Shown here piece by piece: positions 15,956-32,209 of a stretch of DNA of 64,000 nucleotides. The notes beneath the pieces are model-generated. The model was not told where the DNA came from, did no database searches, and saw only the letters and a program-made list of their open reading frames with translations. Both the position numbers and the translations under genes were made by a program. The stretch lies in the IMG/VR virus record IMGVR_UViG_3300009159_000033; one strand, written 5' to 3'. Each line of letters opens with the position of its first letter. Positions within the stretch are counted from its first letter, which is position 1. The DNA is from a virus.

Positions 15956-17071
15956 ATGGATAAGCATGTGGCATACGATAGCGAGTTACCTAATTTAAAT
16001 GTTGAACAGACTCTAGATTTAGGGCTCTACGCTGATTTTCCCGGCACTATTGATTACTTGGCCGAGAAGTGTGCTGCCCCTGCTCAAATCATAAGACGGA
16101 TAGTTTCTCCTTTATACACAAAAACAGATATAGGTATTTACTGGAATCCAGCACTTGAAAAGGCTGGCATGTATGTGAGACCAGTATTAAATCAAGAAGA
16201 GTTTGATTGGGGACTGCAGCTTTTAACGGAGAAGCTTGGTGCAGACCGAGTGCATTCCGAACCTTTGACACCTTACGATTTACATGACTGGTGGGTAAAG
16301 GTAGCTTACTCTCCAACTATACGACGATTAGGAGAACTAGCTCAATTCTTTCCAAGCAAGGACATTCCCGGCTATGGTGGACGACCTATTGCAGCTATGG
16401 TTGCCAGCGGGCTCATAGGTACAGGTCTTGGCTATGGCGCAGGTTGGTTAGGAGAAAAGGTATTGCCAGAGTGGGCACAGACCAAAGGCACACTGCGTAA
16501 GCGTTTAGCGTTGCTTGGTGGTGTAGGCGGAGCTTTAGTAGGTTCAATGCCTGGGTTAGTAAATTTGCATGAAGGTCGAGAATTTAACGATCCAACTCTT
16601 TTTAAAGGTTTTCCCGAAGATGGGTTTGAGGATAAGTTACCTACCTCTGTAAGGTATAAAGAAGCAGTGGCCAACTTTATATCAAAGCAAGCTGATACTG
16701 CTTTTGGAAGCATCGGCGGGCCATCTTTTGCAGAGATGCCTCTAATTCGTACAAATGAGCTTGGACAAGTGCTTTGGGGGACTAACGCAAGCCCTCAAAC
16801 CACCGCTATGACAATGGGTGCAGTATATGGGGCAGGGCAGATGCAAGATCCCAATTCAAGACCCGGAATAGTAACTCCGCACCAAGTTGGGTTGTTTGGT
16901 ATGGCCATGGGGGCCGCAGGTGGCGGGCTCCAAGGCTATTTAACAGGACGTACAGTTGGCTATGGGCTTGGACTGCTAACTGGAATGCCTGGCGGAACGC
17001 AAGCTACATTAGGGCAAACTGGGGCTACCCTAGGTGTAATTAATAGTATAGTGCCTCGACTTTTTAACTAA
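15956..17071 (+). CDS. Putative head/ejection protein with glycine-zipper hydrophobic helices
   Basis: WVKVAYS and ISKQADT motifs; several GxxxG-rich apolar segments. Confidence 0.55.
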   Translation: MDKHVAYDSELPNLNVEQTLDLGLYADFPGTIDYLAEKCAAPAQIIRRIVSPLYTKTDIGIYWNPALEKAGMYVRPVLNQEEFDWGLQLLTEKLGADRVHSEPLTPYDLHDWWVKVAYSPTIRRLGELAQFFPSKDIPGYGGRPIAAMVASGLIGTGLGYGAGWLGEKVLPEWAQTKGTLRKRLALLGGVGGALVGSMPGLVNLHEGREFNDPTLFKGFPEDGFEDKLPTSVRYKEAVANFISKQADTAFGSIGGPSFAEMPLIRTNELGQVLWGTNASPQTTAMTMGAVYGAGQMQDPNSRPGIVTPHQVGLFGMAMGAAGGGLQGYLTGRTVGYGLGLLTGMPGGTQATLGQTGATLGVINSIVPRLFN

Positions 17072-17087
17072 GTATAAGGAGATAGTT

Positions 17088-17519
17088 ATGGCTACAGTAC
17101 AAGAACAATTGGAACAAACAATCCTTGCAATGATTGATCGTTACAAAGAATACACAGCAGACGGAAAAATAACTTATTCAGAAGTGCTTGGGTTGTTGTA
17201 CAACGGGGCAGCAACCCTTGTGCGACTTGTAGAAATAGCTGGGCAGGGCAGCCGTGCAGAAAAAAAGCAGCTAGTGTTAGCAGGGCTTGATAAGTTTTAC
17301 GATACCGTAATTGCTCCAATCGACATCATTGGTGTTCCTAATATGCTTGAGCCCATGGTTGATTCCACTATAAAGTCATTGTTACTTTCTACAGTTGATG
17401 GGGCTACTGATTCTATATTTAATGTGTTTGAAAAGATGGGCTGGATAGCTGAAGATAGCGGTAATGAGCCTCATGCTGTTAAAATGGCAGCAAGGGCTAA
17501 GCCTGTTATGATTTTTTAA
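17088..17519 (+). CDS. Hypothetical protein
   Basis: 143-aa ORF, RBS AAGGAG. Confidence 0.65.
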   Translation: MATVQEQLEQTILAMIDRYKEYTADGKITYSEVLGLLYNGAATLVRLVEIAGQGSRAEKKQLVLAGLDKFYDTVIAPIDIIGVPNMLEPMVDSTIKSLLLSTVDGATDSIFNVFEKMGWIAEDSGNEPHAVKMAARAKPVMIF

Positions 17520-17532
17520 ATTCTAGATTTTA
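17517..17532. promoter_or_regulatory. 16-bp palindromic element, copy 4 (begins at the stop codon; exact)
   Basis: TAAATTC-TA-GATTTTA. Confidence 0.65.
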
Positions 17533-17541
17533 AGGTGTGAT

Positions 17542-17940
17542 ATGACTGTATTGCTTGGAATGAGTGGCGGAGTTGTTTTCTTTGGTCCTCGGACTAATCC
17601 AAAAGCGGTTCGTTGGTGGGCTGAACGAGGACAACTCCACTGGGAAGATTCTCGAGACAACAACTATGGAGTGGTGTCTATTCGAGAATTTCTTCTGCGG
17701 TTGCAAGGCATTAACGATATGATGTCTAATGGACGCAGTAAGGATAATGAAGGTTTTATGCACCAAGATGAGTTGGAACGGCATATGCGTTTCATCGAAC
17801 AAGCATTAGACTTAGTACATAAAGCAAGGGAGCAAGGTGCTCCTGATGATCCTACGGCGCAGAGACACAAGGCAATGAGTTTGCCTGTTACTGTAGTCAT
17901 GCCGTCTTGTTTAACTAGTGGCAAAAGTGTTGCGTTCTAG
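17542..17940 (+). CDS. Hypothetical protein in the RNAP-proximal cluster
   Basis: 132-aa ORF in a co-directional, tightly packed cluster. Confidence 0.6.
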   Translation: MTVLLGMSGGVVFFGPRTNPKAVRWWAERGQLHWEDSRDNNYGVVSIREFLLRLQGINDMMSNGRSKDNEGFMHQDELERHMRFIEQALDLVHKAREQGAPDDPTAQRHKAMSLPVTVVMPSCLTSGKSVAF

Positions 17941-17951
17941 GAGATTATTTA

Positions 17952-18332
17952 ATGCAAGTACATGAAGCATTTAAACTTGGGTTTTTATCTAGGTGTGTCG
18001 AAGAGGGAATGAATCCCGAGCAGACACATGGTTTGTCTAAAATGGCTGCAAGCTTATTTAGCCCAATGGGTGAAGTGCGTAACGCTGTTGGAACTCTTGG
18101 GGACATGGCCCCGTATTTAGCGGCAGGATTGGCAATTCCGCCTGCCCTTGGCGGTCTTGCTGCCTACTTTGCTAACCAAGCTACAGACACAGAAAGCAGT
18201 CAAGGCGTAGATAATATTAAGCGGCAGGAATTGCAAGAAACTTATGAAAGAATGGCTGGGCAGCTGCAAAGGCAGAAAGAACGACAAGATTATAAAGCAA
18301 AGCGTAAGAGTACTGGGCGTATTTTCCTGTAA
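17952..18332 (+). CDS. K-x-A motif protein with a hydrophobic helix
   Basis: AFKLGF and LSKMAAS; YLAAGLAIPPALGGLAAYF. Confidence 0.6.
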   Translation: MQVHEAFKLGFLSRCVEEGMNPEQTHGLSKMAASLFSPMGEVRNAVGTLGDMAPYLAAGLAIPPALGGLAAYFANQATDTESSQGVDNIKRQELQETYERMAGQLQRQKERQDYKAKRKSTGRIFL

Positions 18333-18347
18333 CCGGAAGAGGCTAAG

Positions 18348-18722
18348 ATGGCTAATAGTTTAGTGAAGTTTACCAACCGAAAAGAAGGTAACGAGCGAGG
18401 CCAATTGTTTTGGGATCGTGCGGATGTAGATGGTCTGCCTTTCCGAGGACATCAAGCACCCCTATACCGCAACGAAGAGTATGAAGACAGACTAGTACGA
18501 GTAGCTGACCCAAAAAACGCTACTTTCTACACTGGGGATAACGAACAGAACTTGGCCTATTTAAAAGTCATGGATGGTGTGGCAAATTCTTGGTATCAGT
18601 TGGTGTTTATCGAAAGATGGCGAGAAGAGAAAGATAAGCATCATTACATCTACGCAGAGTGGCTCGAATATTTCTTAGAAGATGGTAATCCCTGCTTGAT
18701 GCCTTCTTCCTCTACCCCATAA
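18348..18722 (+). CDS. Hypothetical protein in the RNAP-proximal cluster
   Basis: 124-aa ORF, RBS GAGG. Confidence 0.6.
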   Translation: MANSLVKFTNRKEGNERGQLFWDRADVDGLPFRGHQAPLYRNEEYEDRLVRVADPKNATFYTGDNEQNLAYLKVMDGVANSWYQLVFIERWREEKDKHHYIYAEWLEYFLEDGNPCLMPSSSTP

Positions 18723-18726
18723 GGAT

Positions 18727-19509
18727 ATGGACATGAATAAGACAAGCGCAAAAAAGTTATTGAAACAAATTAAAGTTGAAAAATCTGCAGCAACACCAAT
18801 TGGTGCGCTCGGTGATGATCTTAGAACGCAAGTTAATCAACAAATGCAATCTGATGCAATTAAAACTATTCTTAAGGCAGTAGCATTTGCAGCAGGAACT
18901 GGAGCTGCAGTTAGAGGAGTTACCGGACTTTTTGAAGGGCCAAGAAACCCTAAAAAAGGCCCGCGCGTAATTGATATGCCGGTAGCATATCCAAAAGAAA
19001 AGAATGCAATAGATTCAAATTCTAGAGCGACTTCTCCTTATGGTTTAGACTACTTTTTACCTAGCCTTGTGGTAGGTGCTCCACTCGCTGCTTATGGTGG
19101 CTGGAAAGGTGTAGATCTTTTGCTAAACAAAGTAAAGGAACGAGAAAGCAAAGCAAAGCTTGAATCTTCAAAAAAGAAATACGAGGAAGCTTTACTTGGA
19201 GCATACAAGCAAGGAACTGATGATTGCTTAGACCAGGCATTTTCTGGATATAGTCAAAAAGCGGCATTAGATCCTATTGGTGCCATTTCTGACAAATTTA
19301 ATTCTACTTTTCCAAATGCTTCTGGGCTTGGTAAAGGACTAGCTTTAACTTGGTTGTTGTCTAGTGTTCCTGCTGGTTACTACTTGGTCAACAAAGCTAT
19401 GAAAAAGAATAGTAGGCGCGCCATATTGGAAGAGGCTGTCGAAGAAAGAGCACGTCGGCAAGCATTGACACAACCTCCTGAAATTTACGCTACTCCGCAT
19501 GCCGTATAA
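18727..19509 (+). CDS. K-x-A motif protein with three hydrophobic/amphipathic helices
   Basis: VEKSAAT and SQKAALD; FAAGTGAAVRG, LVVGAPLAAYGG and LALTWLLSSVPAGYYL. Confidence 0.6.
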   Translation: MDMNKTSAKKLLKQIKVEKSAATPIGALGDDLRTQVNQQMQSDAIKTILKAVAFAAGTGAAVRGVTGLFEGPRNPKKGPRVIDMPVAYPKEKNAIDSNSRATSPYGLDYFLPSLVVGAPLAAYGGWKGVDLLLNKVKERESKAKLESSKKKYEEALLGAYKQGTDDCLDQAFSGYSQKAALDPIGAISDKFNSTFPNASGLGKGLALTWLLSSVPAGYYLVNKAMKKNSRRAILEEAVEERARRQALTQPPEIYATPHAV

Positions 19510-19529
19510 TCTTATTTAGAGTTTTATGA

Positions 19530-22500
19530 ATGCTTCCACTTTCATCTAATTTGTTTGATTCTTCTAATCTCTCGTTGCTAGGGAATACACCTCCTTTAGC
19601 ACAGCCGATGCAGCCATTGCCACCCGCAACTCCATTGCCTAGCTTTCATGAATTTCATGACACTAAGAAGGTCAGATCTATTATCTACGATAGAGTGCTG
19701 CAAGCAGCTCAGCAGCTACAGCCTATGGCTAATGATCGGCATACGCTTAGTTTAACTGGAGTAAATTACCGTGATGGTGATACCGCTAGCAAACAGGAGC
19801 AGAAAGCTGCCATTCTTAATGGTAGATCCCAAGGACGTAGGCTAGAAGGTACTTGGGAGTTAATGGATAACGCAACACAACAAGTAATCGCTTCTAAGAA
19901 ATCAGTTCTTGCCACTGTGCCTCACTTGACGGATCGTGGCACCTTTATCAACAACGGCACTGAGTACATTCTAAGAAATCAACAGCGGTTATTGCCCGGA
20001 GTTTACACCCGCACACGGAACAATGGTGAAATTGAATCCCATGTTAATGTGATGCCTGGGAAAGGTGTATCACAGCGTTATTTCTTAGATCCCGAGAAAG
20101 GCAAATTTAAGCTTAAGGTTGGGCAAGCTTCAGTTGGATTAACTCCTTTGTTAAAAGCTATGGGAGTTACCTCGGAGCAGGCGCAGGAAGCTTGGGGTAA
20201 AGATCTATTCGCTTCTAATTACAATTCGGATGATGCATCCGAATACACACGGCTTAAAGGCATGTTTCTTTCTTCTAAAGAACTAGCTGAGCCAGAAGAA
20301 AAACAAAAACAAGCATTGCTTGCTAAGTTTTCTAAGATGGAAATGGATCCCGAGGTAAATCGTCGCACGCTGGGAAACCCACATTCAGGTGTCACACTAG
20401 ACACATTGATGGACATTACTAAAAAGCTGATAAAGGTTAATAGGAAAGAAGCGGATCCGGATGACAGAGATGCACTTCACTTTCAGCAATTTGTAGGTCC
20501 AGAAGATTTGTTTTCAGAGCGTATTGCCCGAGATAAAGGCGGGGTACGACGTAACCTACTTTGGAAGATGTCGGGCAAAGGTGATTTAAACTCAATGCCA
20601 TCTTCTGCTTTAGACAAACAGGTGAAAAGTGCTTTGCTTGGCAGCGGGCTGGGACAAGCTATTGAAGAAATTAATCCTACAGACATTTATGAAAAGACAA
20701 TGTCTGTTACTCGAGTAGGTGAGGGTGGTATTGGTTCTATGGATGCAATTCCCATGGAATCCAGAAATGTACAGTCAAGTATGCTGGGTTATGTCGATCC
20801 TGTGCGTACTCCCGAGTCGGGTCGTGTTGGGGTGGACACTTATCTGGCTAGGGGATCTCGTAAGGGAAGTGATGGTAAGCTCTATGCTCAGTTTAAGGAT
20901 ATGCGTAACGGGGAAATGACTTTTAAAACTCCTCAAGATGTAGCAGACCTAACTGTCGGTTTTCCCGGAAGCCAAGAAGGCGAAGATGGCCGTGTAGTGG
21001 CGATGCGTGGCGGTAAGATGTTACATGTACCTAAATCAAGCATTGATTTAGAGCTTCCTGACATGGAAGAAGCATTTAATCCTCTTTCCAATGTTATCCC
21101 TATGAAGAGTCAGGTAAAGGGTCAGCGATTAGTTATGGCATCTCGTATGACTACACAAGCATTACCTTTAGCTTCTCCCGAAGCTCCTTTAGTACAGTCA
21201 GCGGTTCCCCGCACAGGTGGCAAACAAAGTTATGAAGAGCTATACTCGGCTGGGATGGGAGCTTTAAGAGCTTCCCAAGGGGGCACAGTTACCTCCGTGA
21301 CAGATGAAGAGATTAAAGTGCGGAATGAAGATGGAACCGAGGAAACGCACGAACTTTATCACAACTTTCCTTTTAATCGTAAAACCTTTTTTCATCAAAC
21401 CGCTGCAGTTCAACCTGGCGACACATTTAAGCCAAACCAGTTGTTAGCAAGTTCTAACTTTACAAACAAGACAGGAACAATGGCTTTAGGTACAAATGCA
21501 CGTACCGCTTATATCCCATGGCAGGGTAAGAACTTTGAAGATGCAATTGTCATCTCAGAAAGTTTTGCAAAGAAGACAGCCTCTTCTCATATGTATCAGC
21601 ATGAGCTGGAAGTGGATGACAAAACACAAGTTGGTAAAAGACAATTTATTCAAGCATTTCCAGCTACATTCAAGAAAGACATATTAGCGAACATAGATGA
21701 TCAAGGAGTGATCAAACCAGGCACAGTAGTTAATTTTGGAGATCCTTTGGTACTAGGGATTACACAAAAGGAAAATGCATACAACAAGGTACATAAGAAG
21801 GGTCAAGCCGGGTTCAACGATGCAGCCGTACTTTGGCAGCATCACGATACTGGTGTTGTTACTGATGTGGTGATGGGTAAGAAGGGTCCGGTCGTTGTAG
21901 TTAAAGCAGAATCTCCAACGCAAGTTGGTGATAAGTTATCTGGTCGTTATGGGGACAAAGGTGTTATTGCGGACATTATTCCAGATAGCGAAATGCCACA
22001 CGATTCAAATAAGTTACCTTTTGAAGTGCTGCTTAACCCTCTTGGTATTATTAGTCGAACTAACCCTGCTCAAATGTCTGAATTGTTTCTAGGTAAAATA
22101 GCGGCTAAGCGTGGTATGCCGATTAAAGTAGATGATTTTGATACTAAAAAAGATATGACTCAATGGGTCATGCAAGAACTGGCTAAAGAAGGTTTGTCGG
22201 ACTTAGAAGACATTATAGACCCATCTAAAGAACAAAAAATTAAAAATATAGCAACTGGTAGTCGTTTCTTTATGAAGCTACATCATACTTCTGAGTCTAA
22301 AGGACAAGGTAGGAGCGGTGGTGCTTACACGATGGAAGATGCCCCAGCCAAAGGTGGCATTGAAGGTTCTAAGCGTATTGGGCTAATGGATGCTAATGCC
22401 TTGCTATCTCACGGAGCCACGGACACACTGCAAGATATCTTCACAGTTAGAAGGCAGAAGAATGATCAGTATTGGATGCAGTACATGTCGGGGTATAACC

Positions 22501-23996
22501 CTAAAGTTACTAAGGTTCCTTTTGCTTATCAGAAGTTTGTAGCCCAGTTACAATCTGCTGGTGTTAATGTAGTCAAGCAGGGAACGCAGACTCAGATTAT
22601 GGCATTAACGGACAAGGATATCGATAACTTAGCTGGGGATCGTGAGCTTAGCAGTGCCGATGGAGTGGAGTGGGGCAACCAGCTTAAAGAGATTAATGGT
22701 GGCTTGTTTGACAAGGCTAAGACCGGCGGGCATGGTGGCACTCGATGGTCGTTTATGCGTTTGCACGAACCTTTACCTAACCCAGTAATGGAAGAACCTA
22801 TCCGTCATATGCTTGGGCTAACACAGAAAAAGTTTGAAGGTATTGTGGCTGGCACAGAATTTTTAGAGAAATATGGAACCGGTACGAAAGCGTTACAAAA
22901 AGCATTAGCAGATCTTAATCCTGCTGCAGAAATTCCTAAAGCTCGGGCTATTATTGCGGCGGGTAGAGGGGCTCAGCGGGATGAGGCAATTCGTAAACTT
23001 GGTTATTTTAAATCGGCACAGAAACTTAATTTGCAGCCTGCAGACTACATGCTGACCAAAGTTCCAGTTCTTCCCCCAATGTTTCGTCCAGTTAGCTTGA
23101 TGAGCAACGGCATGCCATTGGTTAACGATGCTAATCACCTTTACAAAGAACTGTTTGAGGCTAATCAGAATTTTAGCAAAATGCAGCAAGAAGTAGGGGA
23201 AGAGGCTTCGGGATCGGAGCGTCTTTCCACCTATCAAGCATTTAAAGCGGTGACTGGTCTAGGAGATCCGATTAGTGCAAAAAGCCAAGAGAAGAATGTT
23301 CGTGGGGCTTTAAAAAATGTGTTTGGTGCAAGTCCTAAGTTTGGGATTGTGCAACGTAAACTGATTTCTTCTACAGTAGACAATGTGGGCCGAGCGGTAA
23401 TTACTCCAAATCCGGAATTGGACATGGACTCGGTAGGGCTACCCGAAGACAAGGCATTTAAGGTCTATGAGAAATTTGTTACTAGAAGATTGGTGCGACA
23501 AGGCATGTCTATGCTACAGGCTCGTACTCAATTAGAAGATAAGACTCCAGTAGCACGCAAGTTCTTGCTTGAAGAGATGGAGCATCGTCCTGTATATATT
23601 AGTCGTGCTCCTGTTTTGCATAAGTTTGGGATTATGGCAATGAGACCAAGATTGACTAAAGGAAATACCTTACAAGTGAGCCCTTTAATTGTAAAAGGGT
23701 TTGGTGCTGACTTTGATGGCGACACCATGAACTATCATGTGCCAAGTACGGAAAAAGCTAGGCAAGAGGCTTTTGATCGTTTGTTACCTAGTCGTAATCT
23801 TTTTAGCATAGGGGATATGAAATCTGTTATGCATGCCCCTGCTAATGAATACATTGGGGGTTTGTTTATGGGTACAGATCCTTCTCGTAAATCTGATCGA
23901 CCAGTACGGATTTTTCAGAACATACAAGATGTAAGGCGAGCACATGCGCGCGGAGATATTTCAATCAACGATCCGGTACGAATTTTAAATGGGTAG
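19530..23996 (+). CDS. rpoB-rpoC: Phage multisubunit RNA polymerase: beta subunit fused to the N-terminal half of beta'
   Basis: beta motifs TDRGTFINNGTEY, DPVRTPES, PWQGKNFEDAIVISE, GDKLSGRYGDKG, LNPLGIISR and MKLHH; junction near 22575; beta' motifs VPVLPPMFRP, GRAVITP, RAPVLH and catalytic GADFDGD at 23703-23723. Confidence 0.95.
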   Translation: MLPLSSNLFDSSNLSLLGNTPPLAQPMQPLPPATPLPSFHEFHDTKKVRSIIYDRVLQAAQQLQPMANDRHTLSLTGVNYRDGDTASKQEQKAAILNGRSQGRRLEGTWELMDNATQQVIASKKSVLATVPHLTDRGTFINNGTEYILRNQQRLLPGVYTRTRNNGEIESHVNVMPGKGVSQRYFLDPEKGKFKLKVGQASVGLTPLLKAMGVTSEQAQEAWGKDLFASNYNSDDASEYTRLKGMFLSSKELAEPEEKQKQALLAKFSKMEMDPEVNRRTLGNPHSGVTLDTLMDITKKLIKVNRKEADPDDRDALHFQQFVGPEDLFSERIARDKGGVRRNLLWKMSGKGDLNSMPSSALDKQVKSALLGSGLGQAIEEINPTDIYEKTMSVTRVGEGGIGSMDAIPMESRNVQSSMLGYVDPVRTPESGRVGVDTYLARGSRKGSDGKLYAQFKDMRNGEMTFKTPQDVADLTVGFPGSQEGEDGRVVAMRGGKMLHVPKSSIDLELPDMEEAFNPLSNVIPMKSQVKGQRLVMASRMTTQALPLASPEAPLVQSAVPRTGGKQSYEELYSAGMGALRASQGGTVTSVTDEEIKVRNEDGTEETHELYHNFPFNRKTFFHQTAAVQPGDTFKPNQLLASSNFTNKTGTMALGTNARTAYIPWQGKNFEDAIVISESFAKKTASSHMYQHELEVDDKTQVGKRQFIQAFPATFKKDILANIDDQGVIKPGTVVNFGDPLVLGITQKENAYNKVHKKGQAGFNDAAVLWQHHDTGVVTDVVMGKKGPVVVVKAESPTQVGDKLSGRYGDKGVIADIIPDSEMPHDSNKLPFEVLLNPLGIISRTNPAQMSELFLGKIAAKRGMPIKVDDFDTKKDMTQWVMQELAKEGLSDLEDIIDPSKEQKIKNIATGSRFFMKLHHTSESKGQGRSGGAYTMEDAPAKGGIEGSKRIGLMDANALLSHGATDTLQDIFTVRRQKNDQYWMQYMSGYNPKVTKVPFAYQKFVAQLQSAGVNVVKQGTQTQIMALTDKDIDNLAGDRELSSADGVEWGNQLKEINGGLFDKAKTGGHGGTRWSFMRLHEPLPNPVMEEPIRHMLGLTQKKFEGIVAGTEFLEKYGTGTKALQKALADLNPAAEIPKARAIIAAGRGAQRDEAIRKLGYFKSAQKLNLQPADYMLTKVPVLPPMFRPVSLMSNGMPLVNDANHLYKELFEANQNFSKMQQEVGEEASGSERLSTYQAFKAVTGLGDPISAKSQEKNVRGALKNVFGASPKFGIVQRKLISSTVDNVGRAVITPNPELDMDSVGLPEDKAFKVYEKFVTRRLVRQGMSMLQARTQLEDKTPVARKFLLEEMEHRPVYISRAPVLHKFGIMAMRPRLTKGNTLQVSPLIVKGFGADFDGDTMNYHVPSTEKARQEAFDRLLPSRNLFSIGDMKSVMHAPANEYIGGLFMGTDPSRKSDRPVRIFQNIQDVRRAHARGDISINDPVRILNG

Positions 23997-24062
23997 GCAA
24001 TATATCTCTATCCTAGATTTTGATTAGAACTTAGAATCATAAGATGAGATCACACAAGGAGT

Positions 24063-24791
24063 ATGTTTATGGCAGTTAATTTGGAATTGTTAAAGATGGC
24101 CCGACAACATGTAGGAAAACGCCATCTATCTAAATATGCATTTGTTGCAGCAGGTGACCCAGCTATGGGTGCTCCTATGCCTTCTGGCGGTGCTCCTCCT
24201 ATGGATCCTTCCATGGGTGGCGGTGCTCCACCTCCTGACCCTTCAATGGGTGGTGCTCCTCCTATGGATCCTTCTATGGGCGGTGGTGCTCCTCCTATGG
24301 ATCCTTCTATGGGTGGTGGTGCTCCACCTCCTCCCCCTATGGACCCAATGGCAGCAATTATGCCAATGGTTCAACAGGCAGTACAACAAGCAATGTCGGC
24401 TAATGGTGGTGGGCAACCGCAAGGTGCGGGCCCTGGGCTTAAACCTAAAATTGACATAAATGTTGAAATTGTACAAATTAAAAAGATGCTTGCTAAAATT
24501 ATTGATGCTCTTGGTATCCATGTGCCTGTGTCTGATATGGTGGTAACACCCGAAGATTTAAACCAGATTGCACAAGGTGGACCAGGCTTGGCAGCAGCTA
24601 CTCCCGATGGTAAGTCGGGTGGCGGTCTTGGGCAGATTGCCCCTATTTCTCCGATCAAGGCTGCTGAAGCGTGGGAAAGTGGCACAGCTTTTAGTTTATC
24701 AGCTGACTACTATCCTCAGCAGCCTTCTAATAAAAATGGCAGTGTAGCTGCAATGGCTACTGCTCTTTTAATGCGTAATAATAACAAGTAA
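24063..24791 (+). CDS. Pro/Met/Gly-repeat protein lying between the two RNAP genes
   Basis: LSKYAF near the N-terminus and PIKAAEAW later; GGAPPMDPSM repeats. The start may be ATG 24069. Confidence 0.65.
   Translation: MFMAVNLELLKMARQHVGKRHLSKYAFVAAGDPAMGAPMPSGGAPPMDPSMGGGAPPPDPSMGGAPPMDPSMGGGAPPMDPSMGGGAPPPPPMDPMAAIMPMVQQAVQQAMSANGGGQPQGAGPGLKPKIDINVEIVQIKKMLAKIIDALGIHVPVSDMVVTPEDLNQIAQGGPGLAAATPDGKSGGGLGQIAPISPIKAAEAWESGTAFSLSADYYPQQPSNKNGSVAAMATALLMRNNNK
24186..24350 (+). repeat. In-frame ~30-33-nt tandem repeat (GGAPP(M/P)DPSMG x4-5)
   Basis: Repeated ggtgctcctcctatggatccttc.atgggt units. Confidence 0.9.
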
Positions 24792-24804
24792 AGGGGTTCA
24801 GCGT

Positions 24805-25029
24805 ATGTTCATCGTGGAGGTTATTGAAAGTATTGGTAAGCCTCCACTTAGGATACCTGCTTCGCAGGTTGTAGTTCGAATGCAAGATGGTACTCCAGTA
24901 AGTGTAGCTGCACTTTTTGGAAGTGCTACTAGTGTGATGGTATCTCATTGTGAAGATGCTAATTTCAATGATAATTTGCGTAAACTAGGTATCAACGAAA
25001 CCGTTATTTCTACTAAAGTACAGGTGTAA
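24805..25029 (+). CDS. Small hypothetical protein
   Basis: 74-aa ORF in a co-directional cluster. Confidence 0.55.
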   Translation: MFIVEVIESIGKPPLRIPASQVVVRMQDGTPVSVAALFGSATSVMVSHCEDANFNDNLRKLGINETVISTKVQV

Positions 25030-25030
25030 T

Positions 25031-25603
25031 ATGGACTCTTCTTTACGATCTTCTGACTACTACTACCGAGACCGAAAACCAGAGGTTATTCCCGAGATTG
25101 TTCCTACTCCTACTTATCAACAATCCTCTAGTATAAACTCTTCTAACAATAAGTATTATGCCGAGATGGGACCACTTGTTGCAGAAGATGTCCCTCTTAT
25201 TGCTAAGCTTCAGATGCCTCCGAAAGAAGTAGAATTGGAGATACTTGATGGTTGCTATGGCCTAGCTACCATACAAGCTGCATTTGAAGACGGAGCCACC
25301 CGCATCATAGTTAAAGCCTATGACTATGTAGTGACTCAACTGCAAGTTGCTGTAGACATGTCAGTGGGTCGTGGAGAATTAACACGAGAGCAAACAGACT
25401 CTATAGTTTTTGTTGTCTTAGCCCCAGAAGCTATTCTTAGCCCAGAAGAAGTAGCTCTACCTATTGTAGATATGCCAGAGGCGACTGCTGTTTTAAACGA
25501 GGCTCCTAAGCCATCTCGTAAAAAAGCAAAGCGTGGCAAGAGTGAGGAAATTACTCTTAAAGATATCGAAGCTGCCTTTGGTGGTGACGATAGTGACGAC
25601 TAA
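25031..25603 (+). CDS. Hypothetical protein
   Basis: 190-aa ORF. Confidence 0.6.
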   Translation: MDSSLRSSDYYYRDRKPEVIPEIVPTPTYQQSSSINSSNNKYYAEMGPLVAEDVPLIAKLQMPPKEVELEILDGCYGLATIQAAFEDGATRIIVKAYDYVVTQLQVAVDMSVGRGELTREQTDSIVFVVLAPEAILSPEEVALPIVDMPEATAVLNEAPKPSRKKAKRGKSEEITLKDIEAAFGGDDSDD

Positions 25604-25616
25604 AATCCAGATTTTA
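25601..25616. promoter_or_regulatory. 16-bp palindromic element, copy 5 (begins at the stop codon; perfect arms)
   Basis: TAAAATC-CA-GATTTTA, upstream of the beta'-C gene. Confidence 0.65.
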
Positions 25617-25644
25617 AATAATTTGCACACTCTGAGAACTATCC

Positions 25645-28600
25645 ATGTTGAATACGACCGTTGGACAACTGTTAATTAATGATGTCCTTCCGGAAGAGTT
25701 GAGAGACTCCCATCGTGTGCTAGACAAAAAAGGGTTGCAATCTTTACTACAGCAAGTGGCGCGGCAGCACCCAGAGAATTACCGAGATATATCTTTTAAG
25801 CTAAGTAATCTTGGTCAAAGTATAGCACAAGAGCAGGGTGGTATGTCGTTTGGGCTTCGTCACATGCAAGTAAGTAAATCTGCAATAGCTTCCCGCCAGA
25901 AGGTTAGAGCTTCTCTTACTAATATCCTAGCTGACGATTCTTTGACAGACCAAGAGCGAAACGAGCAGATTATTCGTGCAGTTGGCAAGGAAAGTCCAGA
26001 ACAGCAAAAACAAATACTTGCAGAAGCGTTAAAAGACAAGAACCCTCTCGGTATGCAGGTTATGTCGGGTACCCGTGGTAAGTCTATGAATCTAACTAGT
26101 TTGTTAGGTTCAGACATGCTGTATTCGGACCAGCGTGACGATGTAATTCCAATTCCTGTGCTGCGAAGTTACAGCGAGGGGCTGTCTCCTGCCGAGTACT
26201 GGGCTGGAACCTACGGAGCACGCAAAGGCATTATGGCAACTAAGTTTGCCACACAAGATGCTGGATTCTTTAACAAACAACTTAATCAAACTAGTCATAG
26301 ATTGGTAGTCACCGGAGAAGATGCCGAAGAGGCAGACGACGCACCTATCCGTGGATTAGTGGTGGATACTGATGATCCAGACAATGAAGGGGCATTGCTA
26401 GCTCGTAATGTTGGTCCTTACGCTAGAAATACTCCACTTACTCCAAAAATACTGAATCATTTAAAACGGCTTGGTACACCTAAAATCTTAGTGAGATCTG
26501 CCCTAGTGGGCGGGTCTCCCGATGGCGGTGTTTATTCTAGAGATGTAGGTATTAGAGAAACTGGAAAGCTGCCTGGGCTTGGCGAGCAAGTTGGGTTACA
26601 GGCTGCCCACGCTTTAAGTGAACCGATTAGCCAAGGTCAGTTATCTGCAAAGCATTCGGGGGGCGTGGCCGGACAAGAAAAAGCTGTTAGCGGTTTTCAG
26701 TATTTAAACCAATTAGTACAAGTTCCTAAGAAAATGCAAGGAGGGGCAGCCCACTCGTTAATGGATGGAGTGGTGCAGCGTATTGAAGAAGCCCCTGCGG
26801 GCGGGAGCTATGTCACCATTGGGGATAAACAACATTATGTAGGGGCTGGGTTTGAGCTTAAAGTAAAAAAAGGAGATGAGGTAGAGGCTGGTGATGTAAT
26901 TAGTTCAGGAATTCCTAACCCAGCAACTATTACCGAACATAAAGGAATTGGAGAGGGTAGGCGGTATTTTGTTAATGAGTTCCGCAAGGCGATGGGTGAC
27001 AGCGGAATGTTTGGGCACAGACGTAATATTGAGGTGTTAGCCCGAGGTCTTATCAACCATGTAAGGCTGACAGAAGAAACAGATGACCATGTGCCTGACG
27101 ATGTTGTTCCTTACTCTACGCTTGAACACACATACAAGCCACGAGAAGACCACCAGCGGTTAACTCCTAAGCGTGCATTAGGACAGTATCTAGAGCGCCC
27201 TGTACTGCACTACACTATTGGGACCAAGATTCGACCTTCTATGCTTAAGAATTTTGAAGATTTTGAAATTAATGAAATTCCAGTGCATAAGAACCCACCG
27301 CCATTTGAACCAAACATGGTTCGTGGGTTGTATCAAATGCAACATGATCCCGATTGGATGACACAAATGTATGGGTCTGGTCTAAAGAAAAGCTTCTTAG
27401 ACTCTGTGACTCATGGGGCTATCAGCGAAGAACGAGGTACAAGCTTTGTTCCAAGCTTAGCAATGGGTCTTGATTTTGGAGAAGGTAAAAACCATGCGGT
27501 AATAAAACCTCAGCCTAGTTATGAGCTACCGGCATTACCTCCACTTCCTCCCCCTATTCCTTCTACTCCTGCTGCGGCAAAGCCTACAGCTCCTAGCAGT
27601 GCTCCTTTTTTTGGCGGGCGTTTTACCCCTGGGCAAACTAAGCTAGGATTAGATAGCACACCTTCTGTGTCTAAGCCACCTTCTGTCTCTAAGCCACCTG
27701 CTGTAACCAGTATGTCACCAGTTTCTAAGCCTCTTAATACAAACATTATGCCTTCTCCTACTCCAGCCCCCAAAACTGCACCGACTACCCCAAGTTCAAA
27801 CCAATTTAGTAACTTGATGCAAAACGATACTTTTGCACAGCAAACTGGTCAGATGTTAAACGGAGCAGATCCTACAAGTGCACTTATGATGCTAGGAGGC
27901 ATGGCAGGGGGTAGTAATAACATGTCTCAGTTATTTAACTCTGGGCCTTCGCAGCGATTAGCCACAAGCGGTAGTGGCGGTGGAATGTTTGGTAATTTGT
28001 TTAATATGTTTGGGAATAACAATCAAAATGGGCAATCAATTATGCCCAGTGGAGATTACAACTCAGCTACAAATCAAGGCGGGATGTTGAGTAGTAACAC
28101 ATCTGCGGAATCTGCACCCGCATCTTCAGCAGAAGCAGTTCCTGCAGAGGCTACATCAAAAGCTGGTCCAGATATATTTACAGCTGTAGATCATGCACCG
28201 GCGGCCTATACCGCTATAAAAAATACAATCGTACCGCCTAAGGCATTACCTACTCCCCCTGCGCCTACTGCACTAGTGCCTAAAGCACCGCTACCTACAG
28301 CTCCAGCACCTATTACCCCTACTCCACCGATACCCAAAGCACCAATACCCAAAGCACCAATGCCAGCTGCACCAATACCAGCTGCACCCGGAGGTTTACT
28401 TAGTAAAGTAATGCCAGCAGTTTCCACGACTTACAAAACATTGGCTAAAGCAGCCCCTGGTATTGGAATAGCTTTAGAAACTGGGAGTGTCGGTTACGAT
28501 GTTTACAATAAGGGTTGGGATAACACAACTAACGACGCAGCACAAAATATAAGAAACATTGCTTCAGGTAAAGATGGGTTGCACACATTGTGGCAAGCTC

Positions 28601-29364
28601 CTGTTCAAATTTTAAACCCAGTGGCTAACGCACAGCTAATAGCAGGCGGTACAACTCAGACTGCACAGATGATTGGGGAGCAAGCTGGGATAGGTGCTGA
28701 AGCTATTCGAGATAAAGTAACTGGAACTGATGCTATTTCTCGTGCATCGGTTGTGGACAAATCAAAAGTTAACGCAATGGAAGTAGCAAAGCAAAAAGAT
28801 TTAGAAGCACAAAAAGCTAAGCTTCAGCAAGAGTCGCAAAATACAAATATCATGGCTCCCTCCATGATAGAACAAAATAAACAAGAGCAAGCTGGCATCG
28901 ATGCACAAATAGGAGACGCTAAAACTAGACAAGAAAATACGGCAGACGAAACAGCTAAGTGGAGATTAGGTCAGCAGAATTGGTTTGGGAGTGGCGGACA
29001 CAAATTCCGAGATGCCATGCAAAATTCGGTTGCAGCTACGGACACAGAGCTAGCAGATTTAAAAGCTAAAGGTGAATTAGATGCAGTAGGTCAAGCACGG
29101 CAGGAGCAGTTATTAAATAGACAGGCGCAGCGTAAGGCAATGCTGGGTACTTATGACCGAGAAAGCGGTTCCTCGGGTAAGGGATTATTCAGCAAGGATA
29201 TACGCAATCGGGTTAGCGGTCTTAAAGAAAACATTGTGGCAGTTACTGCACAGCTTCGAGATACTTCTCTTCCTCCTGAACAAAGGGCAAAGCTAGAAGC
29301 CCAATTGAAAACTAATAACGAGGACCTTGCTGAGTACCGAGGATGGGCAGAAAGTTCTAAATAA
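25645..29364 (+). CDS. rpoC: RNA polymerase beta' C-terminal half (bridge helix, trigger loop, jaw) fused to a ~620-aa low-complexity extension
   Basis: TTVGQLLIN, SGTRG, EGLSPAEY..TYGARKG (bridge helix), VGLQAAHALSEP..AKHSGG (trigger loop), RRNIEVLARGL. RNAP similarity ends near 27480. Confidence 0.93.
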   Translation: MLNTTVGQLLINDVLPEELRDSHRVLDKKGLQSLLQQVARQHPENYRDISFKLSNLGQSIAQEQGGMSFGLRHMQVSKSAIASRQKVRASLTNILADDSLTDQERNEQIIRAVGKESPEQQKQILAEALKDKNPLGMQVMSGTRGKSMNLTSLLGSDMLYSDQRDDVIPIPVLRSYSEGLSPAEYWAGTYGARKGIMATKFATQDAGFFNKQLNQTSHRLVVTGEDAEEADDAPIRGLVVDTDDPDNEGALLARNVGPYARNTPLTPKILNHLKRLGTPKILVRSALVGGSPDGGVYSRDVGIRETGKLPGLGEQVGLQAAHALSEPISQGQLSAKHSGGVAGQEKAVSGFQYLNQLVQVPKKMQGGAAHSLMDGVVQRIEEAPAGGSYVTIGDKQHYVGAGFELKVKKGDEVEAGDVISSGIPNPATITEHKGIGEGRRYFVNEFRKAMGDSGMFGHRRNIEVLARGLINHVRLTEETDDHVPDDVVPYSTLEHTYKPREDHQRLTPKRALGQYLERPVLHYTIGTKIRPSMLKNFEDFEINEIPVHKNPPPFEPNMVRGLYQMQHDPDWMTQMYGSGLKKSFLDSVTHGAISEERGTSFVPSLAMGLDFGEGKNHAVIKPQPSYELPALPPLPPPIPSTPAAAKPTAPSSAPFFGGRFTPGQTKLGLDSTPSVSKPPSVSKPPAVTSMSPVSKPLNTNIMPSPTPAPKTAPTTPSSNQFSNLMQNDTFAQQTGQMLNGADPTSALMMLGGMAGGSNNMSQLFNSGPSQRLATSGSGGGMFGNLFNMFGNNNQNGQSIMPSGDYNSATNQGGMLSSNTSAESAPASSAEAVPAEATSKAGPDIFTAVDHAPAAYTAIKNTIVPPKALPTPPAPTALVPKAPLPTAPAPITPTPPIPKAPIPKAPMPAAPIPAAPGGLLSKVMPAVSTTYKTLAKAAPGIGIALETGSVGYDVYNKGWDNTTNDAAQNIRNIASGKDGLHTLWQAPVQILNPVANAQLIAGGTTQTAQMIGEQAGIGAEAIRDKVTGTDAISRASVVDKSKVNAMEVAKQKDLEAQKAKLQQESQNTNIMAPSMIEQNKQEQAGIDAQIGDAKTRQENTADETAKWRLGQQNWFGSGGHKFRDAMQNSVAATDTELADLKAKGELDAVGQARQEQLLNRQAQRKAMLGTYDRESGSSGKGLFSKDIRNRVSGLKENIVAVTAQLRDTSLPPEQRAKLEAQLKTNNEDLAEYRGWAESSK

Positions 29365-29451
29365 TATTAGTTGTGTGCTTGTATTGCGGTATAGGCCCCT
29401 ATATGGCTAAACTGGTCTAATAATTTCAAGTTTTAAACTTAGGTGAATATT

Positions 29452-29661
29452 ATGTGGAATAAACCGCTGCTTGGTGGGCTTGACATAAAATATGCTGCAG
29501 CATACTTGTTGCCTCCGACTACCATGAAGAAAAAGAAAAAGAAAACGCCACTAGAGGAAGAAGAAACGGATGTGGAAAAGGTGGCAGCTGCCTTGGGTGA
29601 TGCTATTGTAAATGCCCGCCTTTCTTTACTTAGACAGCAGATGCGCTCTAATAATCGGTAA
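29452..29661 (+). CDS. Small basic/acidic K-x-A motif protein
   Basis: DIKYAAA, VEKVAAA and a KKKKKK run; ATG 29452 is preferred over GTG 29443. Confidence 0.5.
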   Translation: MWNKPLLGGLDIKYAAAYLLPPTTMKKKKKKTPLEEEETDVEKVAAALGDAIVNARLSLLRQQMRSNNR

Positions 29662-29677
29662 GTAATACAATCGAGGA

Positions 29678-32209
29678 ATGTTGCTCATGGAAATGCCTAG
29701 ACAAAATAATTTATTGAAGAATGCTAGTATCGGCGGTAAGGGAGGAGAAACTGAATTTGAACAAGCTTTCTCTAGCTTGGCTTATGCTTATTTAAAAGAT
29801 AAGGCACCCCGCCTCCTTGATTACATGTTAGGCTTCCAGCTAATTGATCGAAATGAAGATAACACTAAAGCTATTGGTGTCTTTGGTTTTCAAGTCGGCA
29901 AGCAATGGTTGTACGCTCCTGTATTTTTCTTAAATGGTGATTTAAAAGGACACGAGTTACTCTACATAAAAAATAATGATTCGTTTGTTCCTATGAAGGA
30001 AAACTGGATCAACTATCTTATGAGTCGAAAACCTCATATTTTAGGGGAGTCTTCCGTAGGTAAATTACAAGAGTTAGGAGGAATCGCTCCTGATATCAAT
30101 TCTTTATCTATTTCTCCCCAAGGCCACAAGCACGCAAGTGATTCCCAGTGGTTACAGCCCGTTCTACCTATGCTAGCGGCCTTCAAAGTAAAACTTGCGG
30201 GCTCTTTGTACCGTGGTGCCGGCAGCCGTAAGCTGGATCAAAAGGCAGTTGTTCGAGTGCCATTCACAGCAGCATTAACCAAGACAGCTTCAAATCTGGA
30301 TTTTAACCAAGTGCTGCCTAAAAGCTTGGCATTACTTGAAGCAGCTTACGACTTAGCAGAACGCTATCCCACCATTAAAAAAGCTACTAGTGACTTCTAT
30401 GGTGTGGATTGTTTTTCACGCTGGGCTAAAGAACTTCGAAGTAACACAATCAAGCAGGCTAGCAGCATTCTTCCTACGCCTACTACTGTCACACTTGTGC
30501 CCAACACCTTGCTAAGCTCACTATCCCAGCCACTTCCTATTACCGACCACATTAAGGAAGGTAAGTTAGAAGTCTATATGTCAGCTTCTGTGGTAACTAA
30601 TAAAGATGAGCTAAACACCCTAGATCGAGAAAGGTTATTACAAGGCAAAGTAGTCATCAAAGATCGTAGAGAAGATACAGAAGTAAGTAAGCTTTACACC
30701 ACTGAAAATGATATTAGCCTCACCAACCCCTCTGAAACTGAATTGTATTCTGTTTTAGAGAGCTCTGGTGAATTTAGTAAAATGTTGGTGGTCTTGAATG
30801 GTATCAGCAGTCGTGGAGCAGAGTCCATGACCACAGTTGTACGGATAGATAAAAAGGATGGGGCTAACAAAAGCTGGTTAAATGCCGACAGCACGTCAGT
30901 TTTTGCTACACAAGTTTCTGACAAAGACGAGTGGAAAGATTGGTTTGATGGCTTATCCTCTGATACAGACTTGGACGAGGATGCAGAATATATTGCTATA
31001 AACTACAGTCGTTCAGCTACTGCTCCTTTCCGTGTAACTACGGACATGGGTGATGGTGAGTACAAAGTAGATTTTCGCACGAATAAAGATTATTCAGCTT
31101 CACGTAGCGAGCTGATGCCTAAGATACAAGATCGGTATGCTCCTTCTAGGCGGGGCATGGCAGCAGGTGCTAATCTAATAAGTTCTTTCAATAGTAATAG
31201 TAATTATGGGGCTACTCTAATCATTGGCAAAGAAGATAAGAGCGGCCTTAGACTTAGACCTGTCTCCGGACAACTTCGTGTGCCAGCTTCTTTCAAGTTC
31301 ATCAAATTGTCGGATGGTTCTTCTTCCAGCATCTTTGGCGGGTGTGGCTGTTCACCTTTTGACGATGAATCAAATCCTATTAAGTTAGGTGGCTTAGCTG
31401 ACATCAAACGCTTATTAGTTGAAAAGACAGCTAGGCTCAAGATATTTAATAACGGAACTGATGTGTACCTAGACTCTGTAATCGGTGCCGTTCAATTAAG
31501 CAAAAAAGCAGCACTATGCCGCTTGGTAGACACACATGGACTTCGTGAAAAAGTTGCCGTGGATATGCTGCAACAAGCAGAGAAAAAAGGTCATGCAATT
31601 TATCGTGTGCTTTATGCTGCTGGTTATGGGACCGAGAAACAAGCTGAGCCTAATACCAGCGTGTTAGCTGGAGGCCCATCCTTCCCCCTTGATACGGATA
31701 CTTCTGGGGATCGTGGCAGTGAAACCTATGGCCCAAGCACCTCTGCCCTAACTCGATATTCTACCGAGAAAAACTCGCCTATCCCTTCAATGAGCGGTAA
31801 GAACACAAATAGGTCTAAGTGGGACAACTGGCAGAACTTTGAAGCTAAAGATTTTCAACAAAATCTGCAATCTGCTCAAACTGCTGGCAAAGATGGGCAG
31901 AAAGAAGTATTTGATGTTTCAATGATGGCAGGTATGTTAAAAACAGTAAGACAAGATTCACTAGTAGATCGCCACTTGGGCGACTTAATGGCAGCCTTGG
32001 ATTCGCTAGGCCGGTTGTTAATGAATTTCTACTGGCATCAAGAAGAATTTGAAGATAGATATGGCAAAAGTGATCTTCCAGAGTTAGAAGATAGTTTGCG
32101 CAATGCTTTTGAAGCTCTTGGTGATATTACACTCTTCTTGAAAGAGAAGACTATTGAGTCATCATTTGATAAAGGTGACATTAACTTAGACGAAGTTTCA
32201 AGGAACTAA
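29678..32209 (+). CDS. Large head-module protein of unknown function
   Basis: 843 aa; LLKNASI, GHKHASD, LTKTASN, IKQASS, VEKTAR and TEKQAE. The start may be 29687. Confidence 0.65.
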   Translation: MLLMEMPRQNNLLKNASIGGKGGETEFEQAFSSLAYAYLKDKAPRLLDYMLGFQLIDRNEDNTKAIGVFGFQVGKQWLYAPVFFLNGDLKGHELLYIKNNDSFVPMKENWINYLMSRKPHILGESSVGKLQELGGIAPDINSLSISPQGHKHASDSQWLQPVLPMLAAFKVKLAGSLYRGAGSRKLDQKAVVRVPFTAALTKTASNLDFNQVLPKSLALLEAAYDLAERYPTIKKATSDFYGVDCFSRWAKELRSNTIKQASSILPTPTTVTLVPNTLLSSLSQPLPITDHIKEGKLEVYMSASVVTNKDELNTLDRERLLQGKVVIKDRREDTEVSKLYTTENDISLTNPSETELYSVLESSGEFSKMLVVLNGISSRGAESMTTVVRIDKKDGANKSWLNADSTSVFATQVSDKDEWKDWFDGLSSDTDLDEDAEYIAINYSRSATAPFRVTTDMGDGEYKVDFRTNKDYSASRSELMPKIQDRYAPSRRGMAAGANLISSFNSNSNYGATLIIGKEDKSGLRLRPVSGQLRVPASFKFIKLSDGSSSSIFGGCGCSPFDDESNPIKLGGLADIKRLLVEKTARLKIFNNGTDVYLDSVIGAVQLSKKAALCRLVDTHGLREKVAVDMLQQAEKKGHAIYRVLYAAGYGTEKQAEPNTSVLAGGPSFPLDTDTSGDRGSETYGPSTSALTRYSTEKNSPIPSMSGKNTNRSKWDNWQNFEAKDFQQNLQSAQTAGKDGQKEVFDVSMMAGMLKTVRQDSLVDRHLGDLMAALDSLGRLLMNFYWHQEEFEDRYGKSDLPELEDSLRNAFEALGDITLFLKEKTIESSFDKGDINLDEVSRN
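30290..30305. promoter_or_regulatory. 16-bp palindromic element, copy 6 (intragenic)
   Basis: TCAAATC-TG-GATTTTA. Confidence 0.5.

Follow-up and report, generated by a model that had tools for sequence, protein, structure and literature searches.

To our knowledge, every cellular multisubunit RNA polymerase has an α-type assembly platform and structural zinc. The way in which the two large subunits are divided into genes is more variable. In Helicobacter and Wolbachia, the C-terminus of β is joined to the N-terminus of β′ in a single open reading frame (ORF), RpoBC (models NF007172 and NF011417), and these fusion enzymes work with α and ω. In cyanobacteria and plastids, β′ is carried by two genes, RpoC1 (γ) and RpoC2 (TIGR02387 and TIGR02388), which are divided shortly past the catalytic barrel. 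Among phages, the polymerases of the phiKZ/AR9 type are β/β′ relatives without α or ω, in which β′ is split past the barrel and β is split into two or three pieces; nothing is fused, there are two paralogous sets, one of which is packaged in the virion, and there is no σ70 homologue (PMC7598289). The mReC enzymes, which are found in uncultured tailed phages of up to >200 kb, are bacterial-like and branch outside the cellular clades (Weinheimer & Aylward 2020, PMC7481178); the published tables list separate β (~1000-1400 aa) and β′ (~890-1300 aa) proteins. For Salmonella phage Arash, polymerase proteins have been named simply 'β' and 'β′', and the partition itself was not described (PMC10585845). 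Here, we consider a polymerase locus in a 64,000-nt window (the whole stretch of DNA that was analysed) of the IMG/VR virus record IMGVR_UViG_3300009159_000033. In this locus, β is fused to the N-terminal part of β′ (β::β′-N), whereas the remainder of β′ (β′-C) is encoded three genes downstream. On balance, the phage probably encodes this bacterial-type RNA polymerase as its only one, made up of two chains and a σ factor and likely carried in the virion.

The source is this one record, which is linear, 172,719 bp long and 84% complete according to CheckV. Nearly all of its genes lie on one strand, and the window represents the minus strand of the record. Homologues were sampled from 80 IMG/VR loci; individual loci and contigs are designated by L-numbers. 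Domains were called with Pfam, NCBIfam and PHROG profiles and by sequence search of the PDB, and alignment with E. coli relied on phmmer/hmmsearch and MAFFT. Residues described as invariant refer to alignment A1 (14 family sequences) for the fusion chain and to alignment A4 for β′-C. The polymerase features, in window coordinates, are as follows.

19530-23996, plus strand: gene of the β::β′-N fusion (P0001), 1488 aa, no Cys; identified with Pfam, NCBIfam and PDB, a single ORF in 80/80 IMG/VR loci
19530-22595, plus strand: β moiety, aa 1-1022; phmmer/hmmsearch against E. coli RpoB and motif coordinates
21927-21962, plus strand: β active-site loop GDKLSGRYGDKG, aa 800-811, counterpart of the bacterial GDKxxxRHGNKG
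22596-23993, plus strand: β′-N moiety, aa 1023-1488; alignments
22722-22748, plus strand: zinc-ribbon remnant TGGHGGTRW; MAFFT alignment
23703-23723, plus strand: catalytic Mg-binding GADFDGD, aa 1392-1398; motif coordinates and A1
25645-29364, plus strand: gene of β′-C with a C-terminal extension (P0002), 1239 aa, no Cys; TIGR02386 and PDB
25645-27492, plus strand: β′-C core, aa 1-616; alignments and residues invariant in A4
27493-28392, plus strand: low-complexity linker, aa ~617-916; composition per 100-aa block
28393-29361, plus strand: charged C-terminal domain, aa ~917-1239; identity to the nearest relatives

The first chain reads through from β into β′. Pfam recognizes Rpb2_3 and Rpb2_6 of β (E 1.4e-50) followed by Rpb1_1 and Rpb1_2 of β′ (E 1.2e-23), and PF00562 reaches 172.9 bits (cut-off 23.4) over aa 581-935. 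In NCBIfam, rpoB covers aa 285-751 and rpoC aa 1113-1485, the latter corresponding to profile positions 158-533, while β chains in the PDB match aa 101-1058 and β′/γ chains aa 1110-1486. The β moiety is complete, as residue 1337 (of 1342) of E. coli RpoB aligns to residue 1014, within the β C-terminus QLQSAGVNVV (aa 1006-1015). After a linker of at most 7 residues, β′-N begins at approximately E. coli β′ residue 19 and stops at approximately residue 553; judged from the alignments, the junction is a tight head-to-tail fusion. Eight residues of the active-site loop GDKLSGRYGDKG (G800, D801, K802, R806, G808, D809, K810 and G811) are invariant, as are D1394, F1395, D1396, G1397 and D1398 of the catalytic motif. 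The chain ends in ...DISINDPVRILNG, and the Pfam and NCBIfam matches together with the ORF sequence bear out the original prediction, made from the sequence of the window, of a β::β′-N fusion that passes through GADFDGD to this terminus. It should be noted that the protein falls short as a stand-alone β (TIGR02013, 276.5 bits vs. a cut-off of 801; NF001616, 299 vs. 896). Its top NCBIfam matches are the Helicobacter/Wolbachia β/β′ fusion models, although every score is far under the equivalog cut-off (326.5 vs. 5372 bits and 271 vs. 4632 bits for the whole RpoBC fusion models).

Three ORFs (242, 74, and 190 aa) separate the fusion gene from the gene of β′-C, which starts with MLNTTVGQLL, as had been foreseen, and is confirmed as the rest of β′ by its rpoC match. 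TIGR02386 (rpoC) resumes at profile position 548 and extends to 1066 over aa 2-495 of P0002, and β′ chains in the PDB match aa 1-494. A single-polypeptide β′ has therefore not been kept: profile positions 158-533 lie on one chain and 548-1066 on the other, with three genes between them. The landmarks of the core are TTVG at aa 4-7 (E. coli T572-G575), the bridge helix at aa 191-213 and the trigger-loop helix at aa 325-340, and the bridge-helix and trigger-loop residues are invariant. The first 616 residues correspond to the entire Arash gp216 (606 aa). The locus had initially been closed at position 27480, which is wrong and cuts the β′-C ORF, since the latter runs to 29364 and comprises a long tail. 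The linker part of this tail contains blocks with 35-62% Pro/Ala/Ser/Thr and a mid-block rich in Gly/Asn/Gln, and it has no match in Pfam or PHROG. The C-terminal domain, which is probably helical, is 60-75% identical in L009, L011 and L090 and 35% identical in L008; it was not found in other long β′-C proteins or in ~60 loci with a complete β′-C of ~613-680 aa. The tails of β′-C proteins are modular: unrelated tails are found in different subclades (protein length 918-1453 aa), and most relatives are tail-less (~625 aa). By analogy, such a tail is reminiscent of the low-complexity C-terminal tail of the eukaryotic β′ homologue and of the polymerase of Thermus phage P23-45, which is fused to the tape-measure protein.

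The break in β′ replaces the E. coli hairpin loop 554-571, directly before TTVG. The β′ moiety has also lost a zinc site: when 7 phage and 5 bacterial sequences are aligned with MAFFT, the Cys4 zinc ribbon of ~32 residues (E. coli C70, C72, C85, and C88) is deleted in 7/7 lineage members and TGGxxG is found instead. Both β′ Cys4 sites (C70/72/85/88 and C814/888/895/898) are without cysteine, and there is no cysteine at all in P0001, P0002 or the σ factor P0127 described below (1488 + 1239 + 245 aa), in a genome with a mean Cys content of 1.27%. Cysteine is likewise absent from 87 of the 94 normal-length homologues. Bacterial β + β′ pairs in the comparison set contain 17-40 Cys; the exception is one Patescibacteria metagenome-assembled genome (MAG) with 4. 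In this Candidatus Nanoperiomorbaceae MAG (L153, JBAQVB010000001.1), the 4 Cys are spread over 2440 aa of β + β′ and the β′ zinc ribbon retains its length with no Cys inside, and thus it may represent a cellular zinc-free β′. Among the plus-strand ORFs of at least 150 aa in the phage genome, 15 of 122 are Cys-free. Besides the polymerase genes, those in the window encode a 2044-aa protein (54188-60322), two proteins of ~380-400 aa beside the capsid gene (35731-36879 and 38412-39611) and the capsid protein itself (40745-41692). Part of the virion module seems to be characterized by an avoidance of cysteine.

The remaining subunits of a cellular enzyme were searched for in the whole record. Neither α (PF01000) nor ω (PF01192) gave a match at E<=1 across the 172,719-bp record, which is 84% complete, and thus the lack of both in the window, which had been noted earlier, extends to the record. 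PF01000, PF01193 and PF01192 were also not found in Arash, Vibrio phage D69 or three IMG/VR relatives (G001-G003, two of which are 100% complete), while the same search was positive in 14/14 control genomes. The genome contains only one polymerase set and, towards the end of the window, a candidate specificity factor.

63697-64000, plus strand: start of a σ70-family gene (P0127), 245 aa, no Cys; the gene extends 434 bases beyond the end of the window (L089:17718-18455:-)

P0127 matches Sigma70_r3 at 26.7 bits (cut-off 25.3), with weak region-4 matches, NCBIfam σ models at E 1e-7 to 1e-4 and the σ factor family phrog_351. A Sigma70_r2 Pfam search of the genome gave no match, and the gene came up through its Arash homologue, gp10, and through the region-3/4 matches. 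Homologues occur in every complete relative searched, including contigs with unsplit fusions.

This layout is real and is present in at least 80 related contigs and, by database matches, in hundreds of sequence clusters. The fusion is one contiguous match in 80/80 IMG/VR loci, and in each of the 74 loci with a downstream flank that includes the beginning of β′-C, this gene opens at query residue 1-4, on the same strand and 0.9-5 kb downstream. A word-indexed search returned >120 clusters at 90% identity, most of them of ~1470-1500 aa with PF00562 and PF00623, and in a HMMER scan of 50%-identity representatives the best 150 all scored >787 bits, many being lengthened by inteins. Indeed, many fusion homologues reach 1800-3350 aa and match in 2-6 stretches (P0054, P0055, P0078, P0086, P0096, P0103, P0109 and many of P0128-P0271); several carry the intein/LAGLIDADG domains PF14528, PF14890 and PF03161, and in the Vibrio phages D181 and D148 the match to the fusion consists of two pieces, beneath which a homing endonuclease is annotated. 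The polymerase gene seems particularly prone to invasion by inteins and homing elements. Whole contigs of relatives (L090-L098, 50-204 kb) have been deposited inside bacterial MAG bins assigned to Gemmataceae, Nanopelagicales, Aquaspirillum, Thermoguttaceae, Methylococcales, Anaerolineales and Bacteroidales. Placement in bins of unrelated phyla is probably due to mis-binning, which would make the bins unusable for host assignment.

At ~30% identity, the same partition is found in isolates, namely Salmonella phage Arash (OQ632216; Gp206 of 1525 aa, Gp216 of 606 aa and σ Gp10) and Vibrio phages D69, D148 and D181, which have the same fusion and the same aligned break. In Arash and D69 the zinc ribbon is likewise deleted, the σ is homologous and no α or ω was found, and Arash and this phage share homologues of the portal, capsid, helicase and virion proteins. 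By the fusion, the break before TTVG, the deleted zinc ribbon, the companion σ and the grouping in one clade (values of the Shimodaira-Hasegawa-like approximate likelihood-ratio test, SH-aLRT, 91/89), the sequences place this phage in an Arash-type lineage. However, Arash differs in several respects: identity is ~29-30%, β′-C has no C-terminal extension, the two chains hold 1 and 4 Cys, and the portal gene adjoins the polymerase gene. Public annotation of these genes is misleading. In GenBank, both Arash gp206 and gp216 are labelled 'subunit beta', and VPHD69_0261 and VPHD69_0264 of D69 (OZ195729) are each labelled 'hypothetical protein'.

In this architecture, the first chain brings both catalytic double-psi β-barrels and the Mg-binding DFDGD together on one polypeptide, and the second supplies the remainder of β′ (bridge helix, trigger loop, and jaw) and, in this clade, a long low-complexity tail with a small conserved domain. 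It is reasonable to assume that such an enzyme works as follows. The covalent β-β′ link might replace the α dimer as the assembly platform, and promoters would be recognized by the phage σ. The polymerase would be made late, together with the structural genes, would enter the head and would reach the next cell along with the DNA, so that early transcription could begin without relying on the host. The Cys-free, zinc-free, two-chain design may have evolved as an adaptation to transit through the tail and the oxidising periplasm.

The packaging of the polymerase in the virion of this phage, which was part of the original prediction, is plausible and, by analogy, likely, although the argument is indirect and draws on the proteome of a homologue and on a Cys-free signature like that of the N4 virion RNA polymerase. 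In liquid chromatography-mass spectrometry (MS) of Arash virions, the fusion Gp206 ranked first among all proteins with 3516 spectra, while Gp216 gave 1210 and the σ Gp10 gave 467 (PMC10585845). In N4, the ejected polymerase gp50 (3500 aa) and the co-ejected gp51 and gp52 contain no Cys, and replication proteins contain ~1% Cys. Several points weigh against the proposed function. Ribonucleotide reductases and kinases are among the 116 entries of the Arash 'virion' list, and its authors consider that abundant proteins may have been carried over (PMC10585845). The Arash homologue is only ~29% identical to P0001 and, given the 1 and 4 Cys of its chains, the Cys-free and the proteomic arguments rest on different members of the lineage; packaging and ejection by this phage are thus read across from a homologue's proteome and from an N4-like composition. 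The negative result for α and ω applies at the level of Pfam in an 84% complete record, and a divergent analogue could exist, for example P0123, P0124 or P0126 (see below); it is also possible that the phage enzyme uses host α. Finally, the phage σ could redirect the host polymerase instead.

The alternative that survives best is an active enzyme that is not delivered with the virion, although we regard it as rather unlikely. In such a case, the polymerase would be made during infection and, with the phage σ, would be responsible for middle/late or for all post-early transcription, whereas its detection in Arash would reflect the carry-over mentioned above. This would fit the metabolic enzymes in the Arash particle proteome, the upstream neighbours of the locus (genes of nucleotide metabolism and unknown genes rather than head genes) and the presence of a single polymerase set, compared with the separate virion and non-virion enzymes of phiKZ-type phages (PMC7598289). 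However, the fusion homologue tops the Arash virion spectra, above the major capsid protein, and zero Cys in 2,727 residues, conserved in the family, would not readily be expected of an enzyme confined to the cytoplasm and matches the ejected N4 proteins. Moreover, Arash, L097 and L098 have the portal gene next to that of the polymerase, and in this phage the polymerase genes are directly upstream of the structural block and co-oriented with it. Virion carriage thus remains the preferred explanation.

The neighbourhood of the polymerase genes in this phage consists of the following genes.

24063-24791, plus strand: P0123, 242 aa, no Cys, Pro/Gly/Met repeat protein; homologue in the gap of 76/80 loci
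24805-25029, plus strand: P0124, 74 aa, small beta-rich protein (~75 aa in relatives); homologue in the gap of 79/80 loci
25031-25603, plus strand: P0125, 190 aa, clade-specific gap gene; homologues in 11 loci only, no Pfam or PHROG match
29678-32209, plus strand: P0126, 843 aa, conserved gene directly 3′ of β′-C; homologue in 65 loci
36892-38370, plus strand: homologue of Arash gp222; tblastn 40% identity over 202 aa, E 8e-25, gp222 having been seen in Arash virions by MS
40745-41692, plus strand: major capsid protein homologue, 315 aa, no Cys; tblastn to Arash gp226 E 5e-33, weak match to phrog_2522 major head protein

A co-oriented block begins with the polymerase genes and contains homologues of the Arash virion proteins gp222, gp233 and gp236 and of gp226 (major capsid). 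The description of the locus as embedded among head genes thus holds for its downstream side; upstream lie a ribonucleotide reductase and small unknown genes, and the portal homologue is ~45 kb away on that side, whereas portal and polymerase genes are adjacent in Arash, L097 and L098. The reductase (13585-15864, a few genes upstream) is of class II (B12-type) with an N-terminal ATP cone (phrog_367, E 8e-135). It was the only clear result of PHROG and Pfam searches on 20 neighbouring ORFs, the others being faint sub-threshold matches. Across loci L008-L096, a conserved cassette can be recognized, in which the fusion is followed by a P0123-like gene, a P0124-like gene, β′-C and a P0126-like gene of ~800 aa; in loci with a short β′-C, the latter starts within ~100 bp of the β′-C stop.

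The neighbour proteins were also approached with AlphaFold2 (AF2) models, Foldseek against the PDB and BFVD, VIA Z scores and the ESM Atlas. P0123 has a sub-threshold 'Mucin-like' Pfam match alone. P0124 is modelled with a mean predicted local distance difference test (pLDDT) score of 91, but Foldseek found no match for its fold, and the best VIA Z of 2.8 (FHA-like) is not meaningful. The model of P0124 also does not resemble the helical ω subunit. P0126 (AF2 pLDDT 64) has nothing at E<=0.001 in Foldseek against the PDB and no usable match in the ESM Atlas, and its best BFVD match is an uncharacterised Caudovirales protein. Profile hidden Markov models of P0123 and P0124 detected no homologue in Arash, Vibrio D69, L097 or L098, and thus these two proteins are probably not core subunits throughout the lineage; in this respect, the Arash-type isolates differ from the IMG/VR relatives of this phage. 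No tRNAs were found in the window. A scan of positions 13000-32500 for σ70-type promoters yielded 30 sites vs. 33.5 expected, none above chance, while terminator-like sites were somewhat frequent (23 vs. 16.1 expected, sd 3.9), with no informative site.

A more far-reaching, tentative proposal, which we hold to be possible but doubtful, is that β::β′-N, β′-C and σ together make up a minimal injectable holoenzyme that dispenses with α, ω, zinc and cysteine. The break in β′ would then exist to allow two unfolded chains to thread through the tail and re-associate in the host. The free C-terminus of β′-C, in turn, could dock exchangeable, clade-specific modules for delivery or capsid targeting, such as the 620-aa tail seen here, and P0123, P0124 and P0126 might act as assembly or ejection helpers.

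Phages with an unsplit fusion are informative with regard to the origin of this partition. In L097 (2262 aa) and L098 (2873 aa), β::β′ is a single ORF with a portal homologue just upstream, and both are also present in IMG/VR together with four further full-fusion relatives of 2060-2188 aa (full fusions of 2060-2873 aa in total: L097, L098, L166, L167, L168, and L170). These phages (L097, L165-L168, and L170; L098 = L171) share with the split forms the head-to-tail junction, the deleted zinc ribbon, and a low Cys number (3-16), but their β′ is continuous, with a short loop (e.g., GTG or DGK) at the position of the break. In trees inferred with IQ-TREE (LG+C20 PMSF, ~1960 columns, 34 and 37 rows), the 15 bacterial rows are grouped with 100% support, including the cyanobacterial-type locus L100 and the Rickettsiales fusion L151. 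The viral clade, also with 100% support, divides into three branches: L098, the L097 group and the 17 split forms together. The full fusions branch off basally, and the split-form clade receives SH-aLRT values of 91 (34 rows) and 89 (37 rows). Thus, it is most likely that the fusion is ancestral to the lineage and that β′ was split once, later, inside the fused gene and independently of cyanobacteria, with moderate support from the sequences for this order of events. Two facts speak against it: the approximately unbiased (AU) test retains a tree in which Arash and Vibrio D69 group with the full fusions (Δ log-likelihood 1.9, p-AU 0.42), and the trees, whose root is assumed, comprise no archaeal, eukaryotic, true cyanobacterial or mReC sequences.

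Inheritance of the β′ split from a cyanobacterial-type rpoC1/rpoC2 ancestor has a few points in its favour. The break is in the same region, just past the β′ double-psi barrel, the best-scoring β′-type PDB chain for β′-N is cyanobacterial γ (156 bits vs. 142 for the next β′), and the polymerases of phiKZ-type phages are said to share the cyanobacterial break site (PMC7598289). Nonetheless, we consider such an origin very improbable. The phage break, directly before TTVG, lies ~20 aligned residues upstream of the rpoC1/rpoC2 break; residue 23 of P0002 aligns to RpoC2 position 4-5, and in L100 (rpoB/rpoC1/rpoC2; TIGR02388 1252 bits) the break is 18 residues past TTVGR. The generic rpoC_TIGR model beats the cyanobacterial models on both halves (169 vs. 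146 bits for P0001 and 195 vs. 81 bits for P0002), and the latter scores are far below the respective cut-offs of 976 and 467. Furthermore, L100 is placed among the bacteria, a long way from the phage clade, and the unsplit fusions of the sister phages show a short loop where the gene break lies here. The claim that the split is close to but not identical with the cyanobacterial site thus holds, and its convergent origin is supported. As for an assembly, frameshift or gene-calling artefact, or bacterial contamination, the data come from a single metagenomic contig and close relatives are at times binned into bacterial MAGs, but the chance of this is negligible given an uninterrupted ORF in 80/80 IMG/VR contigs and in independently sequenced isolates (which also answers the objection of an assembly error at the β/β′ junction raised with the original prediction), an architecture common to hundreds of protein clusters and a 173-kb contig with nearly all genes on one strand and with portal, capsid and virion-protein homologues.

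Outside the Arash-type lineage, the enzyme does not coincide with any of the known systems compared. No PHROG family has the fused layout, the best matches being separate β-like and β′-like families, and in the literature no paper was found that describes a fused-and-split partition. The cellular RpoBC fusions differ in having the whole β′, both zinc sites and many Cys (40 in the recovered Rickettsiales example L151, 2827 aa) and lie inside the bacterial clade. In the cyanobacterial system, the break is ~20 residues further downstream, β is separate, and α and ω are present. The enzyme is also not of the phiKZ/AR9 type, since β is whole and fused, a σ70-like gene is present and there is a single set; moreover, polymerases of that type are too divergent for ordinary alignment, whereas this enzyme aligns readily to bacterial models. 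In the mReC phages, the deep-branching Caudovirales with an RNA polymerase cited with the original prediction, β and β′ are separate proteins and the architecture is thus different. The mReC filter required a distinct β′ of at least 800 aa with NADxDGD, and the terms 'fusion' and 'fused' were used for crAssphage only (PMC7481178). Such a filter would therefore exclude a fused-and-split layout, and this phage differs from mReC in layout, as judged from the published tables and methods.

A polymerase that travels in the particle and serves early transcription is an idea shared with N4 gp50, crAss-like gp66 and Thermus phage P23-45, and N4 gp50 is likewise Cys-free. The P23-45 polymerase is fused to the tape-measure protein (PMC10770324), and a fusion of this kind with a structural or ejection protein might be a parallel to the tail of β′-C. 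However, these polymerases are of unrelated or very distant folds, consist of single chains and have no σ. Within this context, a widespread phage lineage appears to do without the α platform and zinc, using two chains and a σ. Unlike the phiKZ or crAss polymerases, its enzyme can be aligned and modelled against bacterial ones, and it is present in the cultivable Salmonella phage Arash and in Vibrio phages. Because a bacterial-like enzyme is available in cultivable phages, minimal assembly, a zinc-independent clamp, σ specificity and delivery through the tail become testable. The lineage also completes a three-state series, from the separate β and β′ genes of cells through the unsplit fusion to the fusion with a subsequent split, which bears on the evolution of polymerase subunit boundaries. 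A break after the β′ barrel thus appears to be a recurrent solution, found in cyanobacteria, in phiKZ-type phages and in the Arash-type lineage.

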